Source: Bacteroidia bacterium (GTDB lineage Bacteria; Bacteroidota; Bacteroidia; B-17B0; Aurantibacillaceae). Taken from it: DNA of 47,211 nt. This document shows, piece by piece, positions 9,117 to 44,685 of this stretch. Both the position numbers and the translations under genes were made by a program. The DNA is taken from assembly GCA_044340865.1 (NCBI GenBank), contig JBIISW010000001.1, positions 1 to 47,211 on the forward strand. The letters are read 5' to 3'. The notes below the pieces were generated by a model that was not told the DNA's origin, ran no database searches, and worked only from the letters and a program-made list of their open reading frames with translations. The first letter of the stretch is position 1. Each line of letters starts with the position of its first letter.

Positions 9117-9431
9117 ATGTCCTCAAATCAAACGTTAAGTGTTTTTCAAATTCATATCACTTTACCAAATATGTTTAATCAGCAATTTACTGCGTTAATT
9201 CCTGAGCAAAGAAGAGTCGTTAATAAATTATTAGCGGCACAAGTCATTTTAAGTTATGCGTTGGATATGGAACGTCAAAATTTATGGATCACTATTCAAG
9301 CCAAAAATCAATTGCAGGTGATGGATGTTTTATCTACATTTCCGATTATCAAAGAAGTCAAAGTAGACATTTTTGAATTAGCTTTTTTTGATACAGTACC
9401 TGCCAGTATTCATGAATTTATTATGAATTAA
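9117..9431 (+). CDS. Hypothetical protein (104 aa)
   Basis: Clean ORF in an otherwise unoccupied interval. I recognise no motif. Confidence 0.45.
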   Translation: MSSNQTLSVFQIHITLPNMFNQQFTALIPEQRRVVNKLLAAQVILSYALDMERQNLWITIQAKNQLQVMDVLSTFPIIKEVKVDIFELAFFDTVPASIHEFIMN

Positions 9432-14673: not shown

Positions 14674-14997
14674 ATGACTGCATTATTTTTAGAAACATCA
14701 ACTAGTTCGACAAAAGAAGATGTGTTTATTTTCCTAGGATTTTTTCTTTTTCTAATAGGAGTTGTTCAAATAATTGGGGCAATCGTTCGTACGATAAGTG
14801 CTATAATTTATAAAAAGAACTTGAAGTTACTTTTAATTTATTGGTTACAGGTAGCAATTTTTATCTTTGTATTTTATGGATTTGTCAAATTAAACCATGA
14901 TATTTTTATTTGGATTCCATTTGCTATACTTATTGCTATTTGGTATTGGGTTAAAATTGTTTTCACCAAACAAACAAAAGACTTTTTTGTGCCTTAA
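14674..14997 (+). CDS. Small hypothetical membrane protein (3 predicted TM helices)
   Basis: Only ORF in the interval. It has hydrophobic segments and no recognised motif. Confidence 0.45.
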   Translation: MTALFLETSTSSTKEDVFIFLGFFLFLIGVVQIIGAIVRTISAIIYKKNLKLLLIYWLQVAIFIFVFYGFVKLNHDIFIWIPFAILIAIWYWVKIVFTKQTKDFFVP

Positions 14998-19317: not shown

Positions 19318-19476
19318 ATCTGTTATAATTTTAATATAAGACAGAACAAAATAGGCTTTAACGCCATTTTATAATCTTACGGGATTAATTTAGAGTGCAA
19401 AAGTAAGAAAAATGAATGAATTAATGAAATATATTATTGATTTTGAAGGTTTTCGGTACTAAAAATCAAACATTAA

Positions 19477-19854
19477 TTAGTTTTGACTAATGTAATTAAA
19501 CTTTAAACCTGTTATTTCTTCAAATACCTCTCCTGCTTCTTTTAGTTCAGAATCATCTTCGTCTACTATCCAATTTACAATAGTATTAGATTTAACTTCA
19601 GGAGATGTATTAGCAACTTTAGAGAATAAATTAAGCAAACATTTAGAAGAGCCCGTATTAAAATAATCTAGGTAAATATCAATAATTAATTGGTTGTTAG
19701 AGGTCAAATAATTTTCTAAAATATCTACCACGGGTTGAAAAAAATGAATGGGGTTTTCCGGTGTGCATATCCCTTTGATAAACAATTTATGTTCTTGATC
19801 ATCGAAAATAATTTCGGGTGAACTCTTAGTGGATACGATATGCAATAGTTTCAT
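19477..19854 (-). CDS. DUF1987 (SiaC-like) protein, paralog B
   Basis: 125 aa. SSPEIIFD...LFIKGICTPENPIHFFQPVVD...LDYFNTGSSK...VNWIVDEDD follows the DUF1987 pattern I recall from P. aeruginosa SiaC (TP.I.f....l.i.G.S.PEN..........Y.NTSS.......W.Y...DE). The conserved Thr is T67 (nt 19654-19656). Confidence 0.8.
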   Translation of the reverse strand: MKLLHIVSTKSSPEIIFDDQEHKLFIKGICTPENPIHFFQPVVDILENYLTSNNQLIIDIYLDYFNTGSSKCLLNLFSKVANTSPEVKSNTIVNWIVDEDDSELKEAGEVFEEITGLKFNYISQN

Positions 19855-19893
19855 GATAATAAAATTATAATTTTTAAACTAATTAATTAAAAA

Positions 19894-20265
19894 TTAAATG
19901 ATTTCAAATTCAAACTTTGATTTAGCACTATGTTCTAAATCTTTTCCTAAATCTAAATTATCTTCATCATCTGCTTCATATCGCCAAACAATGGTAATCG
20001 TTTTACATTTGTCTTTTAATAAATTGACCTTTTTAATAATTTCAATAAATGCCCGTGTAGAAGAAGTGTTAATGTATTCGATTTCGAAAACCAACTTAAT
20101 ATCACTAGGCATATTACTTTCTAGATCTTTAATCCAATTGATTACAGGTGTGTAAAAATTAGTAATGTTTTCGGGAATAGAAACCCCTTTAATTACTAAT
20201 TGACCACCTAAATTGAAATTAATTTCAGGAGTTTCAGCTGTTTGTTTTACAATTAAATTTTCCAT
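19894..20265 (-). CDS. DUF1987 (SiaC-like) protein, paralog A
   Basis: 123 aa. ETPEINFNLGGQLVIKGVSIPENITNFYTPVINWI...IEYINTSSTRAF...IVWRYEADDEDN. The conserved Thr is T67 (nt 20065-20067). The gene lies 51 nt downstream of the PP2C receptor gene on the same strand. Confidence 0.8.
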   Translation of the reverse strand: MENLIVKQTAETPEINFNLGGQLVIKGVSIPENITNFYTPVINWIKDLESNMPSDIKLVFEIEYINTSSTRAFIEIIKKVNLLKDKCKTITIVWRYEADDEDNLDLGKDLEHSAKSKFEFEII

Positions 20266-20316
20266 TTTATAATTTATTTTGCTTTTTTAAATGTTATTTA
20301 TGTTTTGTTTATTGGT

Positions 20317-23300
20317 TTAATCAATTACTTTTTTATGAGGAATAATCGAAAATGAAACTACGGTAATGTCATCCGTTTGTTGATGAATACCGATAAATTG
20401 ATCCATCTCTTTGCTTAAAATTTGTTCTTTTTCAATGCCGGATTTAGGTATAATTGATTTCAGTAAATCAATAGTTCGTTTCTTTGAAAAGCGTTTATAA
20501 TGATTACCCCCTAACTGATCTTGATAGCCATCGGTTGCCATATAAAAACATTCATCACCAGTAACGTTAATTTCAATTGTTTTAAACTTAAAATCATCAT
20601 CTCTGTAATCACCAATTGATTTACGTTGTCCTTTTATGTAAAACTCTTGATCATCGATGAAATATAATAATCCTAATCCTGCTCCTGCAAAACTTAACTT
20701 ATTAGCTTTGGTATCAATCACACAAAGCCCAATTTCCATTCCATCTCTAATTATGTCATGCTCTTTATTATTTAATGACAAATAAATTTGATCATCTAAT
20801 TTCATTAAAATCTCTGCAGGATTTGTAATTTTTTCTATATCAACTATTTGTTCCAAAATTCTACTTCCAATTAGTGTTAAGAAAGCACCTGGAACACCGT
20901 GCCCTGTACAATCTGCAACAGCTATAAAGGTTAATCCATTTTTTTCTTTTGCCCAATAAAAATCTCCACTCACAATATTTCTAGGTTTGAAATATAAACT
21001 AATATCACTGAATGTTTTGGTGAGTTTTGTTATCTCAGGTAATATGGTGCGTTGTATATTTTGAGCGTAGTTTAAACTATCAATATTATCTTTATTGATT
21101 TGCAATAGTTCATTTTTTAAATCAAGCTGTTTAATGGCAACAGAAAGTAATAATGTAATCGACTCTAAATTTTTAATTTCATTATCGGTTAAATCAAATA
21201 CACGACCAAGAGAAACATGAATACCCGCAATTAACCTATCACCATCCATAATGGGCAATAATATGTAGGAAATAACATTAATATGCCTATTGTCTAAATC
21301 AGAAACAGAAACCTCTTTCGCGGTTTTAAGATTACGTTCAATAAAAATTTCACCTTTTTGTAAAGTGCTTGTACTTCTTGTAGTAGACATTGGGATGACA
21401 AGTTTATTAAATTGATTGTCTACTATTTCATAACCACTAAAATGATCATTTTTATCATTTACTTTTGCTAATGCTAAACTTACACAACCTTTAGTCTGAC
21501 TTTTTATAAAGCTTAATGTTTTAAAGGCTAGTTCTTCATAAGATTGAGAGTTAATAATATTTTGTTGCAATGTGTTTTTGTATTCTAAATCACTTGATAA
21601 TTGCAACAACACATTTCTATTTTTAACTTTTTCTGTTATTTCTGTAACGACTTCAATTTGTTGAACAACATTTCCATTATCATCTTTTATAACGGTATTA
21701 GTCAACTCCACCCATTTAATTTTTTTACTTGTTGTTATGATTTCGATTTCTTTACTAAAATTAGTACCATTTAATACATCAATTTCATTTTCAAAATCTT
21801 TTCCATTAGGATTGAATAGATCTCTTGGTCTATTACCAATTAAATCCCCTAGAGAGATTTCAACCATATCTAAATAGCCTTGATTAGCCCATATGACTCT
21901 ACCAAGCTGATCAGCCACTAAAATACCATTTGTGGTTTTTTCAGCAACAATAGATAATTGTTTTAACTCTAATTCAATTTTCTTTTTTTCAGTGATGTCT
22001 GAACAAATTCCTGAACTCTTAAAATAAAATCCATTTACATCTTTGATACCAAATGATTTTTCGTGTATCCATTTAATAGAATTATTTACCTTTATTCTAT
22101 ACTCTATTTCATAAAAACCATTTAAGGCTAAATTTTTATGCGAATTGTATATAATACTTTGATCAGATTCGAGAATATAGTTTTTCCAATAATCAAACTG
22201 TGAGTAATACTCGATTGGTTTTACGCCAAATATTTTTTCAGAAGATGGACTTACATAAAGTAATTTCTTTGATTTTAAATCGTATAACCAAAACACATCA
22301 TCAATGGTTTCGTTTAACATTCTAAAATTACTTTCGCTTTCTTTAATTGCTAACTCGGCCGATTTTCTTTTTTCAGTTTCTAATGAAATAGAAATTATTT
22401 CTGCAACAGACCGAGCAAAGTTTAAATCTTCATTATCCCAAACTCTAAAGCTTGTTGTCATTTCACAACAAACTAAGCCAGATAATTTACCATTTAAAAA
22501 CATGGGAACATCTAATAATGATTTAATATCATTGTCAGGAGATAAACAAAAATCACTTGTATAGTCGTGTTCACATATATTGTTGGCTATAATTGTTTTT
22601 CCTTCTGTGAGTGCTGAGAAATACTTAGGGTAATCTTTCCCTAAAATAACTTCACCTTGATCAAAATCTTTCGTTCCTGTACTATATGCATTTAGACTAA
22701 CTACTTTATCATCAAAATGATTCCAAATAGAAATACGATCTATTTTTAATGCATTAGAAGATTTAATTAAAATATCTTGTACTATTTCGTCTAAATTTGA
22801 ATCGGCTGTATTAGGATTAGTAGTTAATTGATGTAACACCTGATTATAGGTATACATTTTTTCTTGTCTTTTAACTTTTTCTAATTCAGTGTTTTTTAAT
22901 GTTGTGATATCCCTTGTGATGGCTGAGAAGGATACTATTTCTCCAACTTCATTTCTATAAACAATTACTTTTTGTGAAACCCAAAACTCTTTTTTGTTTT
23001 TTGAGGTTACAGGAAATTCAAGAACATCAAAGTCATTTTGATTCGTGGATAATTCTGAATAAAATTTTATAACTTGTAATTTATTATTACCACTAACGAT
23101 AGATGTGAAATGTTGTCCTAATAATTCTTCGGAAGAAAAGCCTAAAATTCGTTGCATGGCTTCATTAATGAATGTGAAATAGCCAGAACCATCTGCCTCA
23201 AAAATAATATCTGGGGCATTTTGAACTAAATTCTTATACTGTTCACGAGCTTTTACTTGTTCGGTCACATCCTGCCCAATACCAACAAATAAATCATTTG

Positions 23301-26300
23301 AGTGTTTAGAATCTGTCCATTGAATGTGCTTATAATCACCATTTTTACATTTTAATTTTCTGATGTAAACTCTATCTTTTACATATTTTTCAGAATAATC
23401 AGAAAATGCATATTCTTTATCTTGGGTTAAAGTCCAAAATGCCATTCCTTTAACTTCTTCACTAGTATAGCCTAATATTTTGCTAATATTTTCGCTACAA
23501 TAAATAACCTTTCCCATCTTATCAGTACCGAGTACTAATGAACTACCGTTATTAACGATGTTATTTGTAAATAATAATTTTTCGGTATTATTTAATCGGA
23601 TAATGTACCTCGCATGATTTAATTTAGTGACAAACAATGTAACAAACGCATAAACAATAGCAATATTAAAATCCATATTTGGATTGAAAAATAAAGCAAA
23701 AGAAAATAAAACTAAAAAGAATACATAAATCCAATAATGTTTAATGTTTTTAAAAACAGAAAATGAGAAAAATAAAACTAAACAATGACTTGCAAACGTA
23801 ATTAATTCGAAAGGTAAAACCCAGATTTTTATCGCATGCGACACAAAATAGGCTAAGAATAATATAACAACTGCAACCGAGAGGTATTTGTAAACAAATT
23901 TACTTTTAAAGCTTAAATAGTAAGAAACAATACAGAAAAAACCAATAGAAAAATTGAAATACAGTTCACTATGAACTCTTAAATGAAATATTTCAAAAAA
24001 GAATTCAACTAAAGGTGCAAAAGTTCCAAAAAATAATAGAAACATTCGATTGGCTTTATTATCCTCTTCAAGCGAATTATTTGTCTCTTTTACATAATCA
24101 GGATTAAACGTTGAAAATTTATTAAATAAAAAATAAATAACGAGTGCTAGTAAAATAAAGACACTTGTGATAAACCACCAACTTAAGTAAAATGGTATTT
24201 TAATTGAAAATGATAAACGGGTTTCTTGACTTAAATCTTTACCAGTTACATCAACAAGTTTAACCTTAAAAACATAATCTCCTGAACGAAGTTTAGAGTA
24301 AGTAATTTCATTTAATAAGCTAGGATTTGACCAATCAGCATCTGCACCTTCTAATTTAAATGCAAAATAAAGCTTGTCATTAATTTCAGAATTGATACAA
24401 CTAAAACGAAATGTTAGTTGATTGTCTTCAGTATTAAATATAAATCCACTATCAGGAATATTATTCCATTTATCTTTACTAGCATCTGTTGTCCAATCAA
24501 TATTTTTATTTAATACTTTTAAATCTGTAATAACGACTTGTCGAGGAATTTCATTATCAATTTTTGAGGCAGTCAGGCATTTAACAATTCCTATTCCCGT
24601 TCCTAAATAAATATTTCCTTCGTTATCAATGAATTGAGCTCGTGTGTTGGTTTCTAATCCCTTAAAGCCATTTTTTGAATTATAATTTTTAACAGAAACA
24701 ATTTCTCCCTTATCATTGACGGAAATTTTATCTAATCCTAAATTAGAACCTGCCCAAATGTTACCAAATTTATCTGCAATTAATGTGTAAATGACAGTAG
24801 ATGTTAATCCATTTTTTTTATTGAATTCTTTTTTGCCATTTTTACCATAAGAAAAAATATAATCTAAGCCCGCAAACCAATAATTACCGAAACAATCTTT
24901 AGTTGAAATAGAAAAAGGTGAAACTATTTTAGCATCCGATTTTTTAAAAACATTTGGTGATTCTTCTGTAAGAATAAAAAGGCCATGATTCGAACCTATA
25001 TACCACTTATTTGGTTCAAACTGATTAATGGTATAAACATAATCATCAAGCTCATTAATTTTTTCAGGTATTTTCGTAATGAAATTAAACTTCTCATCGG
25101 TTATTAATAATCCGCCTCCATAACTTCCAAAAAAATACCTGTTTTTTTTATCTTGAAAAATTGCAACAATAGCCTTTGTTTCATCAGTAAAATAAGGAAG
25201 TGAAATGTCAACTAATTTGTCATTCTTGATTATCTGAATTCCTTTTTTTGAACCAAAAATTATTTCATTAGCATTATTTTTAAAAATAACACTTGCTCCT
25301 TTTGAAACGTTTGCATATGTTTTTTGAAACGTTAACTGACCTAAATTATTCTCAGAAAATTTAAGCAGTCCTTTTTTATTCATTCCAACATATACATCTG
25401 ATTTATCTTTCAAAATCGAAAAAATAGCTGGCTTGTTTAATTCTTCAACATTTGTATAACTAATAAATAGTTGCTTTCCAGTTTTTAATAATCCAAAACC
25501 TTGCGTTCCAAAATACATGTTTCCGGAACGATCTTGCATAAAACAAAGGATGTTATCTCCAATAAATCCATTATTCTTATTAAATTTCTCAATTGATTTA
25601 CCATTATACATGAGTAAATCTTGCTGCTGATCGCCTGAAATCCAAAGATTATTTTCTTTACTGACAAATATATATTTCGGTTTAAAATTTAATGGCGTTG
25701 CCATTATTTGAATTGCAGAATAATTTAAATTAGACTGATTTATTTTATAGATACCTCCTTTTTCAGAAATAGCGATAATTTCACTTAAATTATTTTTACA
25801 AATAGATGTGTGCCCATTAAAAAGTTCTGGTAAAAGAGTAATGATAGTTTTATTTAAAACAAAAAGTCCTTTAGAACCACCAATTAATAAATTACCATTA
25901 TTATCAATCTCTGCTGAACTAACTTCACCAAAGGTATTATTATGGTAAATAATATTTTCGACGGAATAATCTCTTTTTAGTAATACGATTTCTTTATCAC
26001 CAATACAATAAATCCCTTTTGTACTTTTTACTAATTTATAGATATAATTAGACTTTAGTGTTTTAGTTAAAATGTCATAAGTTTTGAAAAACTTGTCTCC
26101 ATTAAACACTGAAATACCATTGAATTTAGAGGCTACAATTAAATTTAAATTATCATCTTCAATTATATCTGTAATTGAAGTTCCTTTTAATTCGTTACTA
26201 GCATCGTATATTTTAAAAGACAAACCATCACTTTTAACTAATCCACCTCCATCTGTACCAATCCAAATAAGTCCACGTGAATCTTGTTCAAGTGCAGTTA

Positions 26301-26421
26301 TTACAGAAGATGGAAGACCTTGTTCTTGATTTATTTGCTGAAATTCATAAACCTGAGCGTGACTAATCATGCTCATTATTAAAAACAATATGTTGTAAAA
26401 ATGCTTCAAAAAACAGTTCAA
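20317..26421 (-). CDS. Giant receptor phosphatase: signal peptide, two-component-regulator propeller repeats, Y_Y_Y domain, 7 TM helices, PAS-PAS-GAF-PAS-PAS-GAF array, PP2C/SpoIIE phosphatase (2034 aa)
   Basis: The TTG start at 26421 gives a signal-peptide-like N-terminus (the ATG at codon 16 would remove it). aa ~25-640 carry repeated blades (LIWIGTDGGGL, MYFGTQGFGLL, YFFGSYGGGLL, NIWAGSNLGL, NIYLGTGIGI). The Y_Y_Y-type motif is YSKLRSGDYVFKVKLVD. Seven hydrophobic helices lie at nt ~23640-24190 with positive-inside loops. PAS-like cores include GKVIYCSENISKILGYTSEEVKG, GYFTFINEAMQRILGFSSEELLG, LLYVSPSSEKIFG and GRVIWANQGYLDMVEISLGDLIG. The C-terminal PP2C motifs are SGDFYW, ADCTGHGVPGAF, ATDGYQDQ and TDDITVVSF. 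Confidence 0.85.
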   Translation of the reverse strand: MNCFLKHFYNILFLIMSMISHAQVYEFQQINQEQGLPSSVITALEQDSRGLIWIGTDGGGLVKSDGLSFKIYDASNELKGTSITDIIEDDNLNLIVASKFNGISVFNGDKFFKTYDILTKTLKSNYIYKLVKSTKGIYCIGDKEIVLLKRDYSVENIIYHNNTFGEVSSAEIDNNGNLLIGGSKGLFVLNKTIITLLPELFNGHTSICKNNLSEIIAISEKGGIYKINQSNLNYSAIQIMATPLNFKPKYIFVSKENNLWISGDQQQDLLMYNGKSIEKFNKNNGFIGDNILCFMQDRSGNMYFGTQGFGLLKTGKQLFISYTNVEELNKPAIFSILKDKSDVYVGMNKKGLLKFSENNLGQLTFQKTYANVSKGASVIFKNNANEIIFGSKKGIQIIKNDKLVDISLPYFTDETKAIVAIFQDKKNRYFFGSYGGGLLITDEKFNFITKIPEKINELDDYVYTINQFEPNKWYIGSNHGLFILTEESPNVFKKSDAKIVSPFSISTKDCFGNYWFAGLDYIFSYGKNGKKEFNKKNGLTSTVIYTLIADKFGNIWAGSNLGLDKISVNDKGEIVSVKNYNSKNGFKGLETNTRAQFIDNEGNIYLGTGIGIVKCLTASKIDNEIPRQVVITDLKVLNKNIDWTTDASKDKWNNIPDSGFIFNTEDNQLTFRFSCINSEINDKLYFAFKLEGADADWSNPSLLNEITYSKLRSGDYVFKVKLVDVTGKDLSQETRLSFSIKIPFYLSWWFITSVFILLALVIYFLFNKFSTFNPDYVKETNNSLEEDNKANRMFLLFFGTFAPLVEFFFEIFHLRVHSELYFNFSIGFFCIVSYYLSFKSKFVYKYLSVAVVILFLAYFVSHAIKIWVLPFELITFASHCLVLFFSFSVFKNIKHYWIYVFFLVLFSFALFFNPNMDFNIAIVYAFVTLFVTKLNHARYIIRLNNTEKLLFTNNIVNNGSSLVLGTDKMGKVIYCSENISKILGYTSEEVKGMAFWTLTQDKEYAFSDYSEKYVKDRVYIRKLKCKNGDYKHIQWTDSKHSNDLFVGIGQDVTEQVKAREQYKNLVQNAPDIIFEADGSGYFTFINEAMQRILGFSSEELLGQHFTSIVSGNNKLQVIKFYSELSTNQNDFDVLEFPVTSKNKKEFWVSQKVIVYRNEVGEIVSFSAITRDITTLKNTELEKVKRQEKMYTYNQVLHQLTTNPNTADSNLDEIVQDILIKSSNALKIDRISIWNHFDDKVVSLNAYSTGTKDFDQGEVILGKDYPKYFSALTEGKTIIANNICEHDYTSDFCLSPDNDIKSLLDVPMFLNGKLSGLVCCEMTTSFRVWDNEDLNFARSVAEIISISLETEKRKSAELAIKESESNFRMLNETIDDVFWLYDLKSKKLLYVSPSSEKIFGVKPIEYYSQFDYWKNYILESDQSIIYNSHKNLALNGFYEIEYRIKVNNSIKWIHEKSFGIKDVNGFYFKSSGICSDITEKKKIELELKQLSIVAEKTTNGILVADQLGRVIWANQGYLDMVEISLGDLIGNRPRDLFNPNGKDFENEIDVLNGTNFSKEIEIITTSKKIKWVELTNTVIKDDNGNVVQQIEVVTEITEKVKNRNVLLQLSSDLEYKNTLQQNIINSQSYEELAFKTLSFIKSQTKGCVSLALAKVNDKNDHFSGYEIVDNQFNKLVIPMSTTRSTSTLQKGEIFIERNLKTAKEVSVSDLDNRHINVISYILLPIMDGDRLIAGIHVSLGRVFDLTDNEIKNLESITLLLSVAIKQLDLKNELLQINKDNIDSLNYAQNIQRTILPEITKLTKTFSDISLYFKPRNIVSGDFYWAKEKNGLTFIAVADCTGHGVPGAFLTLIGSRILEQIVDIEKITNPAEILMKLDDQIYLSLNNKEHDIIRDGMEIGLCVIDTKANKLSFAGAGLGLLYFIDDQEFYIKGQRKSIGDYRDDDFKFKTIEINVTGDECFYMATDGYQDQLGGNHYKRFSKKRTIDLLKSIIPKSGIEKEQILSKEMDQFIGIHQQTDDITVVSFSIIPHKKVID

Positions 26422-27532: not shown

Positions 27533-28888
27533 ATGCAATTTGAGCTCAGTTTAGACTATTTAGAAAAACTAAAAGATGCTATATCAGATAAAGATAATGC
27601 AACATTAACGGCTCAATTAAATGAGTTGTATGAAGTTGACATTGCATCCATTTTAAATAGGTTGGATCTTGAAGAATCAATTTACCTGTATAATTTAATT
27701 GAAGAAGATTTAAAAGCCAATGTATTACTTGAATTAGAGGAAGATAAACGTGAGGCTATTTTATCTACTTTTTCTACCAAAGAAATTGCAGAACAATTAG
27801 ATAATATGGATTCGGATGACGCGGCAGACGTTATCAATGAATTGCCTGAAGAAATTCAGAATGAAGTATTATCACAAATAGAAGATATAGAGCAAGCGAG
27901 TGACATTGCTGATTTGATGGGCTACGAAGAAGGTACTGCTGGTTCATTAATGGCAAAAGAATTAATAAGTGTGTATGCCCACGAAACAGTTTCGGCTTGT
28001 ATTGATGAAATTAGAAGGCAAACAGATAACGTAGAAACCATGTATGCCGTTTACGTTCTAGATATGAATGAGAAATTGATCGGTATGCTTTCGTTAAAAA
28101 AATTAATTATTTCTCATCCATTAGCTAAGGTGGAAGAAATTTTTGATGCAGATATCATTTCATGTAAAACTAGCTCGTCGAGTGAAGAAGTTGCTGAATT
28201 GATTCAAAAATATGATTTAGTTGTTTTGCCCGTTGTGGACCAACTAGGAAGATTAGTAGGTCGTATTACCATTGATGACGTGGTTGACGTGATGAGGGAA
28301 GAAGCTGAAAAAGACATTCAGCGAATGAGTGGTATTACAGACGATGTTGATAGTAATGATACGTTGTGGCGTTTATCAAGAGCTCGTATTCCATGGTTAT
28401 TAGTTGGAATGTGTGGTGGTATTATTGGCTCACGTATTATTGGCAGTTATGAAAATCAGATTCAACTTAGACCAGAAATGGCTTTTTTTATTCCGCTTAT
28501 AGGCGCTATGGGAGGAAATGTAGGAGTTCAATCGTCAGCCATTATCGTTCAAGGATTAGCTAATAATACATTAATTACGGATAAAATTGCTCCTAAATTA
28601 TTAAAAGAATTGGGTGTTGGACTAATAAATGGTTTAATTTGTTCAACATTAATTTTAGGTTATAATTTACTCATCAGCGAATCTTGGGCACTTGCTGCAA
28701 CCGTTAGTTTAGCATTAATTACCGTTATTTTGTGTGCTTCATTTTTAGGAACCTTTGTACCACTTATGATGAATCGATTTAAAGTAAATCCCGCTTTAGC
28801 TACAGGTCCCTTTGTAACAACCTTAAATGACATCATTGGCATTTCAATTTACTTCATTGTAGGAAGGGTACTTTATAGCGTTTTTTAA
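27533..28888 (+). CDS. mgtE: Magnesium transporter MgtE
   Basis: MgtE N-domain (acidic helical repeats with DDAADVINELPEE), a CBS pair (VYVLDMNEKLIGMLSLKKL, LPVVDQLGRLVGRITIDDVVDVM), and a TM domain with GAMGGNVGVQSSAIIVQG and ATGPFVTTLNDIIG. Confidence 0.92.
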   Translation: MQFELSLDYLEKLKDAISDKDNATLTAQLNELYEVDIASILNRLDLEESIYLYNLIEEDLKANVLLELEEDKREAILSTFSTKEIAEQLDNMDSDDAADVINELPEEIQNEVLSQIEDIEQASDIADLMGYEEGTAGSLMAKELISVYAHETVSACIDEIRRQTDNVETMYAVYVLDMNEKLIGMLSLKKLIISHPLAKVEEIFDADIISCKTSSSSEEVAELIQKYDLVVLPVVDQLGRLVGRITIDDVVDVMREEAEKDIQRMSGITDDVDSNDTLWRLSRARIPWLLVGMCGGIIGSRIIGSYENQIQLRPEMAFFIPLIGAMGGNVGVQSSAIIVQGLANNTLITDKIAPKLLKELGVGLINGLICSTLILGYNLLISESWALAATVSLALITVILCASFLGTFVPLMMNRFKVNPALATGPFVTTLNDIIGISIYFIVGRVLYSVF

Positions 28889-30190
28889 ATGCAAACACTA
28901 AAGCAACTTATTTCAGGCGAGTTAAAAGGAACAAAGACACTCAAACTATCTTGCGGAATTACATCATTTCCTCAACACATTTTTGAACTAGCAGATACAT
29001 TAGAAATACTAGATTTATCTGGAAATAATTTATCAGAATTACCATCAAATTTTCATGAATTAAAAAAAATAAAAATTGCATTTTTTTCAGAAAATATATT
29101 CTCCCAATTTCCTGAGGTACTTTCAAAATGCGAAAATTTAACAATGATTGGTTTTAAATCTAATCAGATTCAAACTATTTCTGAAACAGCTTTTCCAAAA
29201 TCATTACGCTGGCTCATATTAACTAACAATCAAATTGAGAAATTACCGAAGAGTATTGGTGATTGTAAAGATTTGCAAAAAGTAGCCTTAGCAGGAAATA
29301 AATTAACAAGTTTACCTGATGAAATGGCACAATGCCAAAACATTGAACTTCTGAGAATATCAGCAAACTATATCGCAGAATTACCTGAATGGTTGCTTTC
29401 TTTGCCGAAATTAGCATGGTTAGCGTACTCAGGAAATCCATGCTGTGTGCAACTAACTCAAAAAAATACCATTCAAGAAATAGAATGGGATGAATTTTCA
29501 TTGAATGAAAAACTAGGAGAAGGCGCCTCGGGAGTCATTTATAAAGCCAATTGGAATAATCCACATTCTAATCAAATTATAGTTGCGATTAAATTATTTA
29601 AAGGTGAAGTAACGAGCGATGGTTATCCAGAGGACGAAATTAATACCTGTTTATCAATAGGTAATCAAAAAAATTTAGTTAAAGTCTTAGGGAAAATAAA
29701 AAACCATCCTCAAAAAACTTCAGGTTTAGTTTTTGAATTAATTCCACCTAACTATTTTAATTTAGGTCATCCTCCAAATTTTGAAACTTGTACAAGAGAT
29801 ACATTCACAATAAAATACACATTTGATCACACATTAATTATCTTAAAAAACATTGCAAATGCTTGTCATCATTTACATTCAAGAGGGATTATGCATGGAG
29901 ATTTGTATGCACATAACACCTTAATTGATGAACAGGGAAATACCATTTTAGGTGATTTTGGTGCAGCATCTATTTATGATTTAAAATCCAATCACACGCA
30001 CAAATTTGAAAAGTTAGACGTTAGAGCCTACGGCTATTTAATAGAAGATTTATTATTAAACCTTTTAGACGATAATTCATTTTTAGAACATAAAGAAAGA
30101 TTAAAAAAAATTAAAAATGATTGTTTAAAAACAGAAATAATTAATAGACCATCATTTTCAGAAATTATAAATGAATTAAATACAATTTGA
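28889..30190 (+). CDS. Leucine-rich-repeat protein kinase family protein (cytoplasmic LRR + eukaryote-like kinase fusion)
   Basis: aa ~35-185 hold about six LRRs (LDLSGNNLSELP, LILTNNQIEKLP, VALAGNKLTSLP, LRISANYIAELP). The kinase core has LGEGASGVIY (G-loop), VAIK with K235 (nt 29591-29593), IMHGDLYAHN with D338 (29900-29902), and GDFG with D356 (29954-29956). No signal peptide or TM helix. The ATG directly abuts the mgtE stop codon. Confidence 0.8.
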   Translation: MQTLKQLISGELKGTKTLKLSCGITSFPQHIFELADTLEILDLSGNNLSELPSNFHELKKIKIAFFSENIFSQFPEVLSKCENLTMIGFKSNQIQTISETAFPKSLRWLILTNNQIEKLPKSIGDCKDLQKVALAGNKLTSLPDEMAQCQNIELLRISANYIAELPEWLLSLPKLAWLAYSGNPCCVQLTQKNTIQEIEWDEFSLNEKLGEGASGVIYKANWNNPHSNQIIVAIKLFKGEVTSDGYPEDEINTCLSIGNQKNLVKVLGKIKNHPQKTSGLVFELIPPNYFNLGHPPNFETCTRDTFTIKYTFDHTLIILKNIANACHHLHSRGIMHGDLYAHNTLIDEQGNTILGDFGAASIYDLKSNHTHKFEKLDVRAYGYLIEDLLLNLLDDNSFLEHKERLKKIKNDCLKTEIINRPSFSEIINELNTI

Positions 30191-31395: not shown

Positions 31396-31794
31396 CTAAT
31401 TAAACTGTTTTAACCATTTGACTGCATCTTCCTGAGTTGTGAATAAACTAGTAGATCTTTCGGGTGCAACAATCTTTATATAAAAATTACAAATAATTTT
31501 TTGAGAAATAGAATTGATAACAAAGGCATCAGCAGTTGAATATGGGCAATTATGAACCTTAGCCATGTGCTTTAATGTTTCAATATCAGCTGTCGAATAT
31601 TTGCCAAATAAAAACATGGTTGGAAGTTTTCTTGAGCCCATTTCAAGTTGTGCCGAAATGAGTTGTTTTAAATCGCTTAAAGAAAACTCCTTTTTGTCTA
31701 ATATTTCAACAAGGTAATATCTATTCTTATGAATAGATATACTGAAAACATCAGATATTATTTTTTTAGACAAAAGCATAAATTTATAAGACAA
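31396..31794 (-). CDS. Hypothetical protein, possibly SpoIIAA/STAS-like fold
   Basis: 132 aa. The layout (N-terminal strand region, central LPTMFLFGKYSTADIETLKHMAK, C-terminal ...SLFTTQEDAVKWLKQ) resembles STAS/DUF-type SpoIIAA-like proteins. This is pattern-level evidence only. Confidence 0.4.
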   Translation of the reverse strand: MSYKFMLLSKKIISDVFSISIHKNRYYLVEILDKKEFSLSDLKQLISAQLEMGSRKLPTMFLFGKYSTADIETLKHMAKVHNCPYSTADAFVINSISQKIICNFYIKIVAPERSTSLFTTQEDAVKWLKQFN

Positions 31795-33476: not shown

Positions 33477-35543
33477 TTAATTTTTAAGTAAATTTTTAAG
33501 TGGGTCTTCCTTAATTACTTTAAAAGCTGTCCGCCTATTTTTTTGATGGGCAGCTTCAAACTCCTCACTTTCAGGCACCATTAAGCTAATTTGATCATCT
33601 GTAACAAGTGGGTCGTTTTCTCCATAACCAGTCGGTCGCATTCTTTTGGAATTAATACCTCTTTGAATTAAATAGTTCACACATGATTGTGCTCTAGCTT
33701 GTGATAGCTTTAAATTATGGTTATCACTTCCTCGGGTATCAGTATGTGAATTAATTTCAATTGATATATTTTCATTTAACCGCATTAATTCAACTAAATT
33801 ATTAAGTATTTCTTTTGACTTAGGTCGTAAGGTTGCTTTATCTAAATCATATTCAATTCCTTCGATAATAATATCACCTTCGGGTATTTTCGATAAATAA
33901 AAATCTTGCTTAAAACTTGCAGATTCCGTGAGTCCTTTTGTACTAATACTTGCAGAGCTTGCAAAATATCCTTTTTTTTGAGTTTTAATAAAATAATCTG
34001 TATTAGGATTTAAATTACTCGCATAATATCCATTTTCATTAGTTGATAAATACACTGGTTCTGAATCGCTATGAACATCACTCAATGTAATTAATGCACC
34101 TAATATAGGTTCATTATTGGATGCATCATACACATTACCATCAACATCTAATAAAATAGGCTCGTTATCAAACGCATATATATCATAACAATTTCCACCA
34201 GGACAATCCTCTCTATCACTCGAAAAATAACCTTTCGACTGAAGTGATTCTAAAACGAAATAGGCATCATCCTTACTCGAGTTAATAGGCTTTCCTAAAT
34301 TTTTCGGAACAGAATAGGCAGAATCTTCAATATTTAATGAACTTTTATAAATATCTAAACCTCCAACTCCGGTATTTCCATTCGAACTAAAAAAAAGGGT
34401 ATTTGATAATGTGTGAAAAAAGGGTGTAACTTCATCTTGATTGGTATTAATTAAAAAACCTAAATTTTTGGCTTCACCAGTAAGTCCATTTTCATCAATA
34501 TTACAAACATATAAATCGAATCCACCCATACCTCCTGGTTTATTGGATGAAAAAAATAATTTCGTTCCATCATAAGTAACGAAAGGTTGCATTGCTTTAT
34601 ATCCTTTCAAATTAACTGTTTCATTTAATTTATATGCTTCGAAAAACATACCATCTTTCATTTTTGCCATATAAATAAAAGATTCATTTCTATTTGCATC
34701 GCTCCACCGCGTAAAAAACATCACGTTATCTGATGTCACAACACTTGAACCTTCGTGCAATCCTGTGTTTACTGGGCGTCCATAATTAATTGGTTTTATC
34801 CATGCAGAATCAATAAATTCTGTATAATAGATATCACACAAATACCTCGAATCTTGAGTTTCAGGATCTAATAAAACGCCGCCTTTACGAGCACTTGTAA
34901 ATAGTAGCTTTGTCGGGCTACCATAAAACATCGGAGCAAAATTAGATGTGCCTGAATTAAAAACTAACGTATCTAACTTATAAACCAAAATTTTCTTTTT
35001 AAAACTACTAGTATCAAGAGCAAAGTAACACGAACTAATACTTTTCTGAATACACTTAATTAATGAATCGTTGGAAGTTGACTTAAGAAGTGCTTCCAAT
35101 TTTATTGCAGCAGTTTGATAATCCTTTAAATTTATCAATGACTGGGCATATAAAACAGCATCATTAGGGTATGATTTATTTTCAACAACAATTTTATAAT
35201 ACTTTGCTGCGTTAATATAATCTTTATTTAAACGATAGCATTCTGCTAATTGATGATTTAAATAATTTATTTTTGAGGCAGTATTAACCTTATTTTTTCG
35301 ATGTTTTTTTAACGTATCTGGTTTAAATTCTTTTGATTTTAAATTTATCAATTGCACATCATACGGAAAAACTAATTCCGATAAAATGGTTGTATCATCA
35401 TTTATTTTTGTGTAAAAATCAATTGCTGTAGGATAATCTTTGACTTTAAAAGCATCGTCACCCTTTTTCAACCAAAGTTTTTTAGATTGGGAAAATGAAC
35501 TTAAGAAAGAGAGAAACAATATTATACTAACTATATTTTTCAT
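33477..35543 (-). CDS. TPR / PD40 (TolB-like) beta-propeller / CarboxypepD_reg-like / OmpA-family peptidoglycan-binding protein
   Basis: Signal peptide, then TPR-like helices (DYPTAIDFYTK, DYINAAKYYKIV, DYQTAAIKLEAL). PD40-like repeats follow (FAPMFYGS..LLFTSAR, PFVTYDGTKLFFSSNKPGGMGGFDLY, TPFFHTLSNTLFFSSN). The OmpA_C core is NSHTDTRGSDNHNLKLSQARAQSCVNYLIQRGI...GYGENDP. Confidence 0.85.
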   Translation of the reverse strand: MKNIVSIILFLSFLSSFSQSKKLWLKKGDDAFKVKDYPTAIDFYTKINDDTTILSELVFPYDVQLINLKSKEFKPDTLKKHRKNKVNTASKINYLNHQLAECYRLNKDYINAAKYYKIVVENKSYPNDAVLYAQSLINLKDYQTAAIKLEALLKSTSNDSLIKCIQKSISSCYFALDTSSFKKKILVYKLDTLVFNSGTSNFAPMFYGSPTKLLFTSARKGGVLLDPETQDSRYLCDIYYTEFIDSAWIKPINYGRPVNTGLHEGSSVVTSDNVMFFTRWSDANRNESFIYMAKMKDGMFFEAYKLNETVNLKGYKAMQPFVTYDGTKLFFSSNKPGGMGGFDLYVCNIDENGLTGEAKNLGFLINTNQDEVTPFFHTLSNTLFFSSNGNTGVGGLDIYKSSLNIEDSAYSVPKNLGKPINSSKDDAYFVLESLQSKGYFSSDREDCPGGNCYDIYAFDNEPILLDVDGNVYDASNNEPILGALITLSDVHSDSEPVYLSTNENGYYASNLNPNTDYFIKTQKKGYFASSASISTKGLTESASFKQDFYLSKIPEGDIIIEGIEYDLDKATLRPKSKEILNNLVELMRLNENISIEINSHTDTRGSDNHNLKLSQARAQSCVNYLIQRGINSKRMRPTGYGENDPLVTDDQISLMVPESEEFEAAHQKNRRTAFKVIKEDPLKNLLKN

Positions 35544-35546
35544 ACA

Positions 35547-36545
35547 TTACAATCTAGGACAATGCTTAATTTCTTTTGTTTTATTGGACTTTACAAGGTA
35601 AGTAAAGGATATTTCAAATGCACCTTTGTAATACGAAACGCCCTTCAATGTTGACGTATTGATATCATATCCAAATTTAGCAATGTAATTTTGTTTTTTT
35701 GCACCTACATAAAAAATGCTCGCATCCTTATGTCTGTAGCTAAATCCACCTAGCAAATAAAAAGATTCATTCTTTAAAAAGTATCCAGCATCTATAGAAT
35801 ATAATTGTTCAGTAGCATTTTTTTGAATTGAAAATAATGCCTTTGGTAAAATATAAAATAACTCATTTATATTTATTCTTAATCCTCCATGAAAATAATG
35901 CCTGATAGGCAATTTATTATTTGTCGTATAATACGTTTCTTTTGGATTAGACAAATTAAATGCAGAATAACCGAAAAATGGATTTAGCCTTGCTTGCTGT
36001 TTTGAATAAAAATACATAAAACCAGCATTAATTTGAGGTGTTACGAATGATTGTGTATTGAATTTTTCGCCAGATGGCAATGTATTGTCAAAAGAACCTC
36101 CATTTGATTGAGAATATTGATTATTAAAGGTATACAATGGAGCTTCTATTCTTTTTTGTGTAAAACCAACTTGTAACCCGTAAGAAATATTATTGTATTT
36201 ATTTTTATCTAAGTGCACTGCATATGAGGTAGAAAATAAAACCTGTAATGCATTATAATTTCCAATACCAGCCCTCATATTAATAATTTGTCCACCAAAT
36301 CCCCATTTTCCTTTTGGTGCGTCAACACTAATTAGAGCTGTATTATATGGTTTAAATGCAACGCTTCTCCATTGATTTCTATACTGAGCATGTACTCTTA
36401 ATTTCGAATCAACTAATCCAGTTAATGCTGGATTTAAAAACATAGGGGCTGCATCGTAAATAGATAAATGAAAATCCTGAGCCCTTACTAAATTTGATTT
36501 TAATAAGAATATACAAAATATAATTCTAATCCCTTTATTTTTCAT
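35547..36545 (-). CDS. PorP/SprF family T9SS membrane protein (copy 1)
   Basis: Signal peptide then AQDFHLSIYDAAPMFLNPALTG, the PorP/SprF N-terminal signature. Beta-barrel-like remainder, 332 aa. The stop lies 1 nt before... the start sits 1 nt after the stop of the upstream type-B-CTD gene. Confidence 0.85.
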   Translation of the reverse strand: MKNKGIRIIFCIFLLKSNLVRAQDFHLSIYDAAPMFLNPALTGLVDSKLRVHAQYRNQWRSVAFKPYNTALISVDAPKGKWGFGGQIINMRAGIGNYNALQVLFSTSYAVHLDKNKYNNISYGLQVGFTQKRIEAPLYTFNNQYSQSNGGSFDNTLPSGEKFNTQSFVTPQINAGFMYFYSKQQARLNPFFGYSAFNLSNPKETYYTTNNKLPIRHYFHGGLRININELFYILPKALFSIQKNATEQLYSIDAGYFLKNESFYLLGGFSYRHKDASIFYVGAKKQNYIAKFGYDINTSTLKGVSYYKGAFEISFTYLVKSNKTKEIKHCPRL

Positions 36546-36546
36546 G

Positions 36547-39500
36547 TTATCTAAGAAGTGTTACGTCACCGGTTTTTTTAAACTTCTTACCTGTATACAT
36601 TTCAACTTCAACTACCCAAATGTAAACACCGATAGGTTGCTCAGTTCCATTAAAAGTTCCATCCCATCCCTCTAATTGGTTAATTGTCTCAAAAATTAAT
36701 TGTCCCCAATTATTATATAATTTCACATTGATGGTTTTAAATGGTCCGCCTCTAACTAGAAAAAAATCATTTTGTCCGTCAGCATTTGGACTAAAAGCCG
36801 TTGGAACATCTGGTAATAAAACAACCATAATTTCTCTCCTAGTTGTATCAATACATCCATTAATATCTTTAACAACCAATGTGACTACAAAATTCCCAGG
36901 ATAATTATAATTATGAATCGGATTTTGAATATTAGTAGCTGTACTATCTCCAAAATACCAATTCCAATTAGTTAGAGAACTAACTCCACTTGATAAATCT
37001 ATAAAATTTGCAGATTCGAGTGCTTCTACTGGGTTAGGATTTACACTGAAATTTGCTGTTGGGCCAGGTATTACATTCACTACTTTAACTAATGTATCTT
37101 TACAACCAAATGAAGACGTTACAATTAATGAAACTGAAAAAGTTGTTGCAGTCGCAAATGCATGCTGTGGATTTTGATGTCCTGAAGTATAAAAATCACC
37201 AAAATTCCAATTCCATGAAATTAAACTTCCAGATAAAGTTTTTGAAGAATCTACAAACTGAGTTATATTACCCAGGCAAGGTGTGTTTTGAAAAAATAAA
37301 GCTTCAGGTAAAAAATAAATCGTTATTGGCTTTTTTATGGTATCGTTACATCCATTTGAGGAATAAGCCACATGGCTAACAGTATATGTGCCAGGTGTTG
37401 TATAAATATGGTTAACCGTATTTGCAGCACCGAAAAATCCATCGCCAAAATCCCACCAATATGTGGTTAATGAACCGATTGAAGTACTAGAATTATCATT
37501 AAAAACCGCACTTTTATAAACACATTCGTTATTGGAAATAAAATTTGCGACTGGTGCTGCTTTAAAATTAATTTTTAAAGTGTCTGAAATAGCACTACAG
37601 CCTTTATTAAACGTTGAAGTCAATAATAAATTAACAGATCCATTTGAAATATCTAAAGCAGAGGGTTGATAAAACGAAGTTAATAATGAATCATTAGGAA
37701 TAAAAACACCCGTACCAAAAGTTGACCAAACACCAGAATTTGTAACTCCTGTAACTGTTCCATTAATTGGAACGACTTGATTGTCGCAAAATAAATTATC
37801 AATCCCTGCATTAACTATAGCAGATTTTACAATTACTAAAAGCAATGTATCTCTAACAGGTAAACAAGATGAACCTGTAGAGGTTAGCACTAATTTAACT
37901 TGACCAGCAAGCGTATCAGCACTTCCTAATGTATATATTGTATTTAGAGAGGTTGAACTTGCAAATGTTCCACTTCCGGTCGTAGTCCATATACCTGTGC
38001 TTGCTCCAGCAGAAACATTTCCATTTAAATTATAAAAAATATTACTTGAACATATGGTATCATTTATACCCGCATTTACAATTGGAGAAGGGGTTACAAA
38101 AATATTCAAACTATCAAATACAGATAAACAATTTCCATTAAAGGTTGAAGATAACTTAATTGTAACACTTCCATTAGCAATGTCAGCTGGTGTAAGTTGA
38201 TATATTGAACTTAAACTCGCAGTAGAAGGCGAGAATAATCCTGATCCACTGGTCGTCCATAATCCAGTTGTTGAACCTCCTGTTACAGTTCCTGTTACTG
38301 CTACCGTAGGATTATTTGCACATACTAAAACATCTGGACTTAAAATTACAACAGGAGCATTCGTAAAATTTATTTTTAAACTATCAAAGGTGTTTGGACA
38401 ACTATTAAAACTTCCTGAAGAGGTTAAACTAAGAGTAACACTGCCTGCTAATAAATCTAATGGTGAAGGCAGATAGGTTGTATTTAACGATCCAATACTT
38501 CCAAAAGAACCTGAACCAGAACTTGTCCAATTGGCACCGGCCGCATAATTTAAAGTCCCATTAAGTGATACTGGACTAATATTATTTTTACAAAGGGTGA
38601 AACTTGAACCAGCTGTAACAGTTGGAGATTTAAATATATTCAACGTCATTGTATCCGAAATAGGATTGCAATTTCCTGTTGAAGATAGAACAAATTTAAG
38701 CTCTGAAAGGCTTAAATCTCCTATACTAAGTGAATATGTAGTATTTAAACTTGTTGTACTTGCAAAAGAACCTGTTCCTCCAATTGCTGTCCAAATACCT
38801 GTTGTTGAACCGCCTTCAATATTACCAACTAAATTAATAGTTGAGGTTGAAGTACAAATATTTTGATTAGGTCCAACAGTTGTTTTAGTTTTCCTTAAAA
38901 AAGAAGACATATAATGATAATAACAACCACCAGTAGGATTGCCATTAAATACACCTAATGCAAAAAAAGGTTCAGATGTATTTGTATTAGTGATTAAACT
39001 GGTTATTCCAATTGGAACTTCTGAAAGTGAATAATTCCTTTGAAATCCACTCCAAATTCCACTTGTTCCGGGAACAACCGTAAATTGAGATGCTGGAATT
39101 AGTGCACTACTTCCATTCAACTTAAAATCATTAATAGCAGATGTTTTACAAAGTACATTCAATAAAAAATTATAATTATTAGTCCTTGTAAAACTAATTT
39201 GATTTGAACCAGCACAATTTAATGGAGGTAAAATTGCCTCGCCTAACTCACAACCAAAACCACTTGCGTGTATAACATAAAATGGTTTATCGCCTTTAAC
39301 ATGTGTTAATCCTTGCGTAGCTTTATAAAAATAGGTGTCACCTTTATTAAGATAAACTATTGTAACGGTTCCATCATTTACCGTTAATTGTGTAAAATTT
39401 TGTGTTGCCACTGCATAGAAGCCTTCAAACTGATTTGCACTCAAAGCACCTTTGTTAATAACGTATTCGTTACCAATAACCTCAACTGGCACAATTTGAT

Positions 39501-41200: not shown

Positions 41201-41201
41201 T

Positions 41202-44624: not shown

Positions 44625-44685
44625 ATATTTTTCAAAGATAAAACAGTTTTTATAAACGACCAAAATATAATTACAAAAATTTTAC

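Follow-up and report, generated by a model that had tools for sequence, protein, structure and literature searches.

A receptor phosphatase and two SiaC-family proteins without a local SiaB-like kinase: a probable trimmed derivative of a Sia-like cassette of uncultured Bacteroidia

Positions 1 to 47,211 of contig JBIISW010000001.1 (assembly GCA_044340865.1; a Bacteroidia bacterium of the Aurantibacillaceae), referred to throughout as the window, contain three same-strand genes that encode a large receptor ending in a PP2C phosphatase domain and two small proteins of the SiaC/DUF1987 family, which we designate SiaC1 and SiaC2. In Pseudomonas aeruginosa, SiaC is phosphorylated on T68 by the kinase SiaB and dephosphorylated by the PP2C phosphatase SiaA (PMC7647112). 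The three window genes lack a SiaB-like partner, and we find that a kinase gene of known type was lost recently, in this lineage only; the orphan status reflects that loss and is not a new kind of switch. The overall picture that we favor, with moderate confidence, is that of a trimmed lineage-specific derivative of a cassette that recurs in the Bacteroidia, with its kinase supplied in trans and its target encoded elsewhere. The three genes and the spacer between the two SiaC genes are positioned as follows.

26421 to 20317, minus strand: receptor phosphatase, 2034 amino acids (aa); open reading frame (ORF) with a TTG start
20265 to 19894, minus strand: SiaC1, 123 aa, SiaC/DUF1987 family; ORF, Pfam SiaC match
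19855 to 19893, minus strand: AT-rich SiaC1-SiaC2 spacer of 39 nucleotides (nt), its sequence kept in the related loci L007, L013 and L014
19854 to 19477, minus strand: SiaC2, 125 aa, SiaC/DUF1987 family; ORF, Pfam SiaC match

From the ORF coordinates, the receptor and SiaC1 genes are separated by 51 nt and the SiaC1 and SiaC2 genes by 39 nt. The receptor start codon is uncertain by about 15 codons, and the gene call in a close relative gives a protein of 2019 aa. The order of elements within the receptor is a signal or anchor segment, a Reg_prop/Y_Y_Y sensor, a multi-transmembrane block, a PAS-PAS-GAF-PAS-PAS array and the C-terminal PP2C domain, of which four regions can be delimited.

24187 to 26349, minus strand: predicted periplasmic sensor, about aa 25-745, with a Reg_prop repeat at aa 35-58 and Y_Y_Y at aa 679-741; Pfam
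23602 to 24180, minus strand: membrane block of 5-7 hydrophobic helices, about aa 748-940, not covered by any Pfam family; Kyte-Doolittle scan
21589 to 23277, minus strand: cytoplasmic PAS/GAF array, about aa 1049-1611; Pfam, and TIGR00229 sensory_box in four stretches
20344 to 21117, minus strand: SiaA-type PP2C domain, aa 1769-2026; NCBIfam SiaA and PDB 6K4E

Pfam matches in the receptor are to Reg_prop (E 9e-21), Y_Y_Y (E 1.4e-10, aa 679-741), at least four PAS domains (PAS_9 at E 1.8e-32, and also PAS_3 and PAS_4), GAF (E 2.4e-15, aa 1209-1347) and SpoIIE/PP2C (E 1.5e-15, aa 1829-2024). The limits of the sensor region are approximate, the first strongly hydrophobic segment (aa 748-766) serving as its boundary. 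Because the membrane block lies between Y_Y_Y and the first PAS domain, the receptor is predicted to have its sensor in the periplasm and its PAS/GAF-PP2C portion in the cytoplasm, with the membrane block connecting the two. The PP2C domain aligns with positions 401-657 of the 658 in the NCBIfam SiaA model (E 2.5e-53) and with the crystal structure of the SiaA PP2C domain (6K4E, E 4.8e-41), with the motifs in register. These motifs are SGDFYW (aa 1818-1823), ADCTGHGVPGAF (aa 1836-1847), ATDGYQDQ (aa 1962-1969) and TDDITVVSF (aa 2016-2024). At the metal-binding positions of SiaA (D457, D474, G477, D600, G601 and D653) the elements GDFY, DCxGHGxPGA, DG..DQ and DDIT are conserved in the receptor, and the motifs that hold the catalytic residues of SiaA listed by Poh et al. 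are all present (PMC7647112). The similarity is confined to the PP2C half, which gives the receptor 181.6 bits against the SiaA equivalog NF038263, short of the cut-off of 700 bits, and the 1765 aa that precede it show no relationship to SiaA.

Both small proteins match Pfam SiaC (PF09345) well above its gathering score of 24.5, with 101.6 bits (E 2.9e-29) for SiaC1 and 108.6 bits (E 2e-31) for SiaC2, and a PDB search done with SiaC2 returned SiaC itself (6KKO/6K4F, E 1.8e-9). Against the NCBIfam SiaC equivalog NF038265, which has a cut-off of 150 bits, they score 74.3 and 65.8 bits respectively. Since these scores and that of the receptor fall far below the NCBIfam equivalog cut-offs, we regard the receptor PP2C domain, SiaC1 and SiaC2 as members of their families, not as orthologs of the Pseudomonas proteins. 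The two SiaC proteins are 33% identical to each other (39 of 120 aligned positions), and Thr67 of each, encoded on the minus strand at 20065-20067 in SiaC1 and at 19654-19656 in SiaC2, aligns with T68 of P. aeruginosa SiaC, the threonine of its NT(S) motif. An NT(S/A/P)S motif is invariant in the alignment of SiaC1 orthologs, and the acceptor position is T or S in all 69 distinct SiaC proteins of the cassettes described below. The SiaC2 subfamily also has two near-invariant cysteines, within GICTPENP and SSKCLL, which in the window are Cys30 (19765-19767, minus strand) and Cys72 (19639-19641, minus strand) and have no equivalents in SiaC1 or in P. aeruginosa SiaC; they could form a redox-sensitive pair beside the phosphorylation site. 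As to its composition, the module is as the earlier note on this DNA had described it: three same-strand genes with gaps of 51 and 39 nt, a 2034-aa receptor with a complete PP2C/SpoIIE domain, and two proteins that fit DUF1987.

The probable origin of the unit emerges from its relatives. One genome per GTDB species was scanned with an alignment of SiaC2, and 80 loci were annotated with our own hidden Markov models (HMMs). In the homolog search, homologs of SiaC2 were found only in uncultured Bacteroidia, and 25 species-representative loci (L013-L036 and L038) have a SiaC2 homolog that is at least 41% identical. A SiaB-like gene, or a fused SiaB domain, is positioned directly upstream of the SiaC2 homolog in 23 of these 25. 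The two exceptions, L013 (99% identical) and L014 (91%), both have the gene order of the window, and with the metagenome contigs L007 and L008, which are likewise kinase-less, this order is represented in five independent assemblies that are 91-99% identical. The HMMs, gene maps, concatenated tree and synteny all indicate that the receptor PP2C domain, SiaC1 and SiaC2 of the window are orthologous to the cassette genes and stand in the same order; what distinguishes the window from the SiaC1-SiaB-SiaC2 arrangement is that the 39-nt spacer occupies the place of the SiaB-like gene.

The most common form of the cassette is receptor-PP2C, SiaC1, SiaB, SiaC2. In the relatives SiaC1 is always directly 3' of the receptor, with stop and start codons that sometimes overlap, and SiaC2 always follows SiaB. 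The kinase is encoded by a gene of 180-190 codons belonging to DUF6272 (PF19788) that abuts or overlaps the start of the SiaC2 homolog. These DUF6272 proteins match the NCBIfam SiaB family protein kinase model NF038262 over its full length (E 2e-18 to 2e-21) with scores of 66-76 bits, just below the cut-off of 85 bits, and contain invariant N-box-like E/N/H residues and a GxGLGLLDI motif; the match of one of them to the SiaB chain of 6KKO is weak (E 0.02). Richer cassettes have further genes inserted, namely one for a TonB-dependent receptor, one for a second PP2C (commonly a TPR-PP2C protein, in some cases as a fusion with SiaB), or a block encoding FIST, a histidine kinase (HK), a response regulator (RR) and DUF7793. 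The TPR-PP2C-SiaB fusions, of about 1060 aa where complete, are located in L010 (3364-6546), L015 (4824-6545), L024 (2169-5369), L025 (6797-9997) and L034 (4251-7433). Other fusions were also seen, joining SiaB to SiaC (P0131, P0177 and P0281) or to three SiaC domains (P0162), or two SiaB domains in tandem (P0076 and P0090).

A neighbor-joining tree of concatenated PP2C, SiaC1 and SiaC2 sequences (506 columns, 100 bootstraps) places the kinase-less loci in a monophyletic clade (100/100). This clade joins five loci that carry a second PP2C and SiaB (100/100), and the resulting group is nested among further SiaB-bearing lineages. Because the kinase-less clade lies inside kinase-bearing ones, we conclude that the kinase gene was lost secondarily. 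Two of the related lineages, L009/L016 and L096, share the left flank of the window, with an EamA gene divergent from the receptor, and in L009 also MgtE and a leucine-rich repeat (LRR) kinase; their order is receptor-SiaC1-(TonB)-PP2C-SiaB-SiaC2. The simplest history from these comparisons would be that the (TonB)-PP2C-SiaB segment, including the second PP2C, was deleted in the window clade, leaving the 39-nt spacer.

Within the kinase-less clade, the ratio of nonsynonymous to synonymous substitution rates (dN/dS) is 0.055-0.096 for the receptor (against L013, L014 and L007), 0.03 for its PP2C domain, 0.03-0.08 for SiaC1 and 0.06-0.07 for SiaC2, with dS values up to 0.64. As these values of 0.03-0.10 reflect strong purifying selection on all three genes, the trio is not decaying and is probably still functional. 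The PP2C domain is the best-conserved part of the receptor, with all catalytic motifs intact. The purifying selection suggests that a working phosphorylation cycle persists.

The absence of a SiaB-like kinase from the window is not confined to the immediate locus. A Pfam scan of all window ORFs of at least 100 aa (three antisense-overlapping ORFs excluded) gave no match to GGDEF, HATPase_c or DUF6272, and no GG[DE]EF motif is present in window ORFs of at least 60 aa. A six-frame tblastn search of the window with the SiaB-like proteins of the relatives gave a best E of 0.04, with no SiaB remnant in the SiaC1-SiaC2 spacer. One gene for a protein kinase of another class is present.

28889 to 30190, plus strand: LRR and Hanks-type Ser/Thr kinase, 433 aa; Pfam Pkinase, PK_Tyr_Ser-Thr and LRR_8

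It is positioned three genes from the receptor start, on the divergent side, is the sole protein kinase gene in the window and is not SiaB-like. It is no more than a candidate for an alternative kinase and for membership of the module.

Neither the window nor its relatives point to an output gene. No GGDEF protein or other adjacent effector was found in about 95 related loci, the lone ORF with a GG[DE]EF motif encoding a sulfatase, and clustering of the flanking ORFs of 34 cassette loci revealed no conserved effector; the only recurrent flanking ORFs there encode the TonB-dependent receptor, FIST, HK, RR and DUF7793, each in 6-9 loci. Cassette flanks vary by lineage, the same-strand genes upstream and the genes downstream are unrelated housekeeping or miscellaneous genes, and in most cassette loci SiaC2 is followed by a gene in the opposite orientation. 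A search of the SiaC representatives for effector fusions yielded only SiaC-SiaC, SiaB-SiaC and SiaB-SiaC x3 fusions and N-terminal regions without annotation. Because the Bacteroidia cassette never has a cyclase or a conserved neighboring effector, a second, non-cyclase output of the SiaC switch is indicated.

These comparisons change several of the expectations in the earlier note. Its view that the 47 kb are without a gene for a SiaB-like kinase, a GGDEF protein or another recognizable effector is borne out by the Pfam, tblastn and motif searches, and its view that the targets are unknown by the lack of an adjacent effector in the roughly 95 loci. Its broader statement that no kinase is nearby does not hold, given the LRR-Hanks kinase gene, and nor does its description of a Bacteroidota variant whose kinase is unknown, since orthologous loci routinely carry the DUF6272 SiaB-family kinase between the SiaC genes. 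The three-gene arrangement, whose conservation in relatives it had set as a test, is kept in L007, L008, L013 and L014, but only in such very close relatives. The note had also held that orthologs with both an adjacent SiaB-like kinase and a known effector would reduce the locus to a rearranged canonical Sia system; the kinase is there, but a known adjacent effector is found at none of the loci.

A plausible scheme for how the trimmed unit works can be assembled from these observations. Deletion of the segment that in sister lineages encodes the second PP2C and the SiaB-like kinase would have brought SiaC1 and SiaC2 to within 39 nt of each other. The receptor would integrate periplasmic (Reg_prop/Y_Y_Y) and cytoplasmic (PAS/GAF) signals and set the activity of its C-terminal PP2C domain, which by homology with SiaA and SiaC would remove phosphate from Thr67 of SiaC1 and probably from that of SiaC2 too. 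In this the unit would resemble cassettes with a single PP2C, such as L017, in which one phosphatase has to serve both SiaC proteins. The opposing phosphorylation would occur in trans, most likely through a SiaB-family kinase encoded elsewhere in the genome; this is the weakest link of the scheme, made plausible by the presence of more than one Sia-like module in several related genomes or loci (L033 and L034 in one metagenome-assembled genome (MAG), L038, L040 and L042). The unphosphorylated SiaC proteins, possibly as a pair, would then bind and regulate a target that is encoded elsewhere and is not a SiaD-type diguanylate cyclase. Among the best 150 of 5306 SiaC representatives, 17 have tandem double SiaC domains, 16 of them being two-domain proteins of about 250-280 aa, which suggests that SiaC domains often act in pairs, in line with the tight spacing of SiaC1 and SiaC2. 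In a few of the tandem SiaC proteins (P0145-P0229) the second domain is without the acceptor Thr/Ser.

Several points weigh against this scheme. No SiaB-like gene of the window's organism was found: the 47 kb have none, and a profile search for SiaB homologs gave nine matches that are 58-74% identical to the SiaB of L009, of which four are inferred to lie beside a sister-lineage SiaC2, one (P0087) is in a sister-lineage cassette and four are untraced. A trans-acting kinase would be unusual, since all of the other lineages carry its gene in cis. The action of the PP2C domain on the SiaC proteins, their phosphorylation and their binding to a target are proposed by homology, the tree is a simple neighbor-joining tree of 506 columns, and all of the relatives are MAGs or metagenome contigs.

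It is possible, though we consider it unlikely, that the window contains a SiaC switch that truly operates without SiaB, either rewired to another class of kinase (such as the LRR-Hanks kinase) or dependent on phosphorylation-independent binding between the receptor PP2C domain and SiaC1/SiaC2, and with a target unrelated to cyclic di-GMP (c-di-GMP). GGDEF signaling is rare in Bacteroidota. Were this so, the DUF1987 module could be uncoupled from the canonical kinase as well as from the canonical output.

Also unlikely is that the genome encodes no kinase for these proteins, so that SiaC1 and SiaC2 are permanently unphosphorylated and the receptor either controls them through binding that does not depend on phosphorylation or has a PP2C domain that has turned to other substrates. 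The 47 kb contain no SiaB-like sequence, none of the traced SiaB homologs belongs to the window clade, and Bacteroidales MAGs commonly encode solitary SiaC homologs, with neither PP2C nor SiaB closer than 10 kb, so proteins of this family can occur with no kinase and phosphatase encoded beside them. These solitary proteins nonetheless keep Ser at the acceptor site (48 of 48 distinct proteins). Moreover, Thr67 and its flanking helix in the window proteins are the same as in the kinase-bearing sister lineages, and the standing of the PP2C domain as the best-conserved part of the receptor (dN/dS of 0.03, motifs intact) implies that there is a phosphorylated substrate.

We consider it improbable that the LRR-Hanks kinase now phosphorylates SiaC1 and SiaC2, a eukaryotic-like kinase having replaced the GHKL-type one of the partner switch, and we know of no precedent for a Hanks kinase that acts on a SiaC or STAS protein at the acceptor site. 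In its favor, the gene is the only one in the window for a protein kinase, it lies three genes from the receptor, and its synteny is kept in L007. However, the divergent EamA-MgtE-LRR-kinase block flanks the receptor not only in L007 but also in L009/L016, which has SiaB as well, so the linkage predates the loss. This synteny is limited to the window clade and the L009/L016 lineage, the kinase being absent from all other cassette loci, and its start abuts the stop of mgtE (27533-28888), suggesting co-transcription with the transporter genes and not with the Sia genes.

The two remaining alternatives are very improbable. An ancestral Bacteroidota DUF1987 switch that never used a SiaB-type kinase would account for the lack of SiaB in the window itself, but a SiaB-family kinase is directly upstream of SiaC2 in all but two of the 25 species-level loci, and the loci without the kinase form a shallow clade (91-99% identity) that branches from among the kinase-bearing lineages. 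Equally hard to credit is a functionless remnant that has been decaying since the deletion, for although the loss of an essential component would normally disable a partner switch, the three ORFs are intact in five independent assemblies with dN/dS of 0.03-0.10 at dS of 0.3-0.6.

Downstream of the unit, the gap that follows SiaC2 and the housekeeping gene beyond it are as follows.

19318 to 19476, minus strand: gap of 159 nt before queA, with TACTTTTG at 19398-19405 (motif position confirmed)
19317 to 18268, minus strand: queA, 159 nt 3' of SiaC2

This gap is the probable end of the three-gene unit. We sought a terminator-like hairpin after SiaC2, in the gap before queA, and found none, and read-through into queA is therefore possible. 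The Bacteroidetes -7-like motif reported earlier in front of queA is present, but it says little about a separate promoter: about 89 matches to TAnnTTTG would be expected in the window by chance and 75 are present and, as the motif is not enriched, single matches such as TACTTTTG carry little weight. A scan of the window for sigma-70 promoters performed no better than on shuffled sequence, and searches across the 47 kb for Rfam families and tRNA genes found none.

A further small protein with a possible link to the module is encoded about 5 kb from the receptor.

31396 to 31794, minus strand: DUF7793 protein, 132 aa; Pfam DUF7793 E 2e-15, own HMM E 5e-39

In several sister clusters a DUF7793 gene is positioned directly upstream of SiaB-SiaC in the order FIST-HK-RR-DUF7793-SiaB-SiaC, and the window gene is a distant paralog of these; a link to the Sia-like module is possible. 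An AlphaFold2 (AF2) model of the window protein (predicted local distance difference test score, pLDDT, 76) has SpoIIAA-like/STAS structures as its best Foldseek matches (2q3l, 4xs5 and 1thn), with apo-SiaC (6kkp) at rank 32, and a general SpoIIAA/STAS-like fold is predicted. We considered whether it is a diverged SiaC and rejected this, as hhalign gives a probability of 5% with no sequence relation and the structure indicates only the general fold.

Other SiaC architectures were encountered in the survey. The solitary homologs (L044-L092, Bacteroidales MAGs) are 33-38% identical to SiaC2, and many of their genes occupy a conserved tsaD / HD / SiaC / DUF3108 / RseC-Rnf neighborhood. In P0182, P0190, P0255 and P0288, SiaC is fused to an N-terminal region of about 100-245 aa without a Pfam match, in which a conserved INGxxIEPNKVYPMxEGDVL segment resembles, by eye, the end of an FHA domain.

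The window as a whole is Bacteroidota-like, with a GC content of about 30% and with type IX secretion system (T9SS) PorP/SprF, CHU_C and Por_Secre_tail genes. A T9SS cargo operon (33477-44663, minus strand) has two genes for giant PKD/CHU_C proteins (1153 and 1232 aa), with a PorP/SprF gene after each, and next a gene for an OmpA/TPR/PD40 protein; further downstream are the genes for an OstA_2 protein and for the DUF7793 protein. Sia-like cassettes are found a few kb from gliding or T9SS genes in other loci too, namely gldKLMN (L003, 14753-19554) and sprA (L005/L028, from about 6734), as with PorP/SprF in the window (35547-41200), and this proximity may be coincidence, such genes being numerous in Bacteroidia. 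At 673-3248 (plus strand) are genes for a VWA-domain protein (373 aa) and an AAA_5/MoxR-like ATPase (484 aa), a typical VWA-MoxR pair in which the stop codon of the first gene overlaps the start of the second. Three plus-strand ORFs, at 4046-4813 (255 aa), 9117-9431 (104 aa) and 14674-14997 (107 aa), have no Pfam family at E of 0.001 or below.

The SiaC/DUF1987 family is large, with 5306 cluster representatives at E of 1e-3 or below, and the searchable literature describes no mechanism for it besides activation of the SiaD diguanylate cyclase in P. aeruginosa. DUF1987 is mentioned in the searched literature only in the SiaC-SiaD structure paper (PMC8457831), which proposes that DUF1987 proteins generally regulate adjacent proteins, a proposal that does not obviously fit the Bacteroidia cassette. 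We found no description of this cassette, the terms DUF6272, SiaB family, SiaB-like and DUF7793 being unmentioned in the searched literature, and Bacteroidota are not covered in the Sia-pathway papers examined (for one of them, in its DUF1987 passages). The value of the window is moderate, as the component families are known, gene loss accounts for the missing kinase and the carriers are all uncultured; its clade is nonetheless a natural kinase-deletion version that is under selection, and offers a useful comparison for finding out which components the switch cannot do without.

The sensor portion of the receptor has its likeness in a different class of regulator. The Reg_prop/Y_Y_Y sensor type belongs to the hybrid two-component systems of Bacteroidetes, and as in those sensors the N-terminal Reg_prop repeat and Y_Y_Y precede a membrane anchor. 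The output of the window receptor differs from theirs, being a PP2C domain reached through a multi-transmembrane block and PAS/GAF domains and not a histidine kinase, receiver and AraC. Of the components of a partner switch, the window locus has the phosphatase and two antagonist-like proteins, the kinase being absent locally. In the SpoIIE-SpoIIAA-SpoIIAB and RsbU/P-RsbV-RsbW systems of Bacillus the parallels are a SpoIIE-family PP2C, an antagonist with a SpoIIAA-like fold and, in the relatives, a GHKL kinase similar to SpoIIAB/RsbW, and the sister loci with two PP2Cs and two antagonists recall the two-tier RsbRST/RsbUVW cascade. Unlike those sigma-factor switches, the locus has no sigma or anti-sigma target, SiaC is not a STAS protein, and the kinase is missing in the window. 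HsbR of P. aeruginosa combines phosphatase and kinase in a single chain, as do the TPR-PP2C-SiaB fusions of the sister clusters, which have FIST-HK-RR genes upstream. The regulatory logic is the same as that of HptB-HsbR-HsbA and other STAS-based partner switches, in which the phosphorylation state of a small STAS-like protein that binds an output protein is under the control of a GHKL-type kinase and a PP2C (PMC8457831). In contrast to HptB-HsbR-HsbA, the substrate is a DUF1987/SiaC protein and not a canonical STAS protein, the window phosphatase has no fused receiver, and no equivalent of HsbD or FlgM was identified.

The closest comparison is with SiaABCD of P. aeruginosa (PA0172-PA0169), with which the window shares a SiaA-type PP2C domain, proteins of the SiaC/DUF1987 family and, where helix alpha-2 begins, a threonine equivalent to T68. 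Relatives of the window carry, in addition, a GHKL-like kinase of the SiaB family, and the PP2C-SiaB-SiaC2 order of the sister lineages mirrors siaA-siaB-siaC. The differences are that no SiaD/GGDEF protein is encoded here or in the related loci, that there are two SiaC paralogs where SiaABCD has one, that the kinase gene is absent at the window locus, and that the 2034-aa receptor, with Reg_prop/Y_Y_Y, a multi-transmembrane block and PAS/GAF domains, replaces the 663-aa SiaA, so that the input module is, as had been noted earlier, far larger than that of SiaA. The window unit is partner-switch-like, departs from the four-gene Sia system in both kinase and cyclase, and is best filed as a reduced derivative of the Bacteroidia Sia-like cassette.

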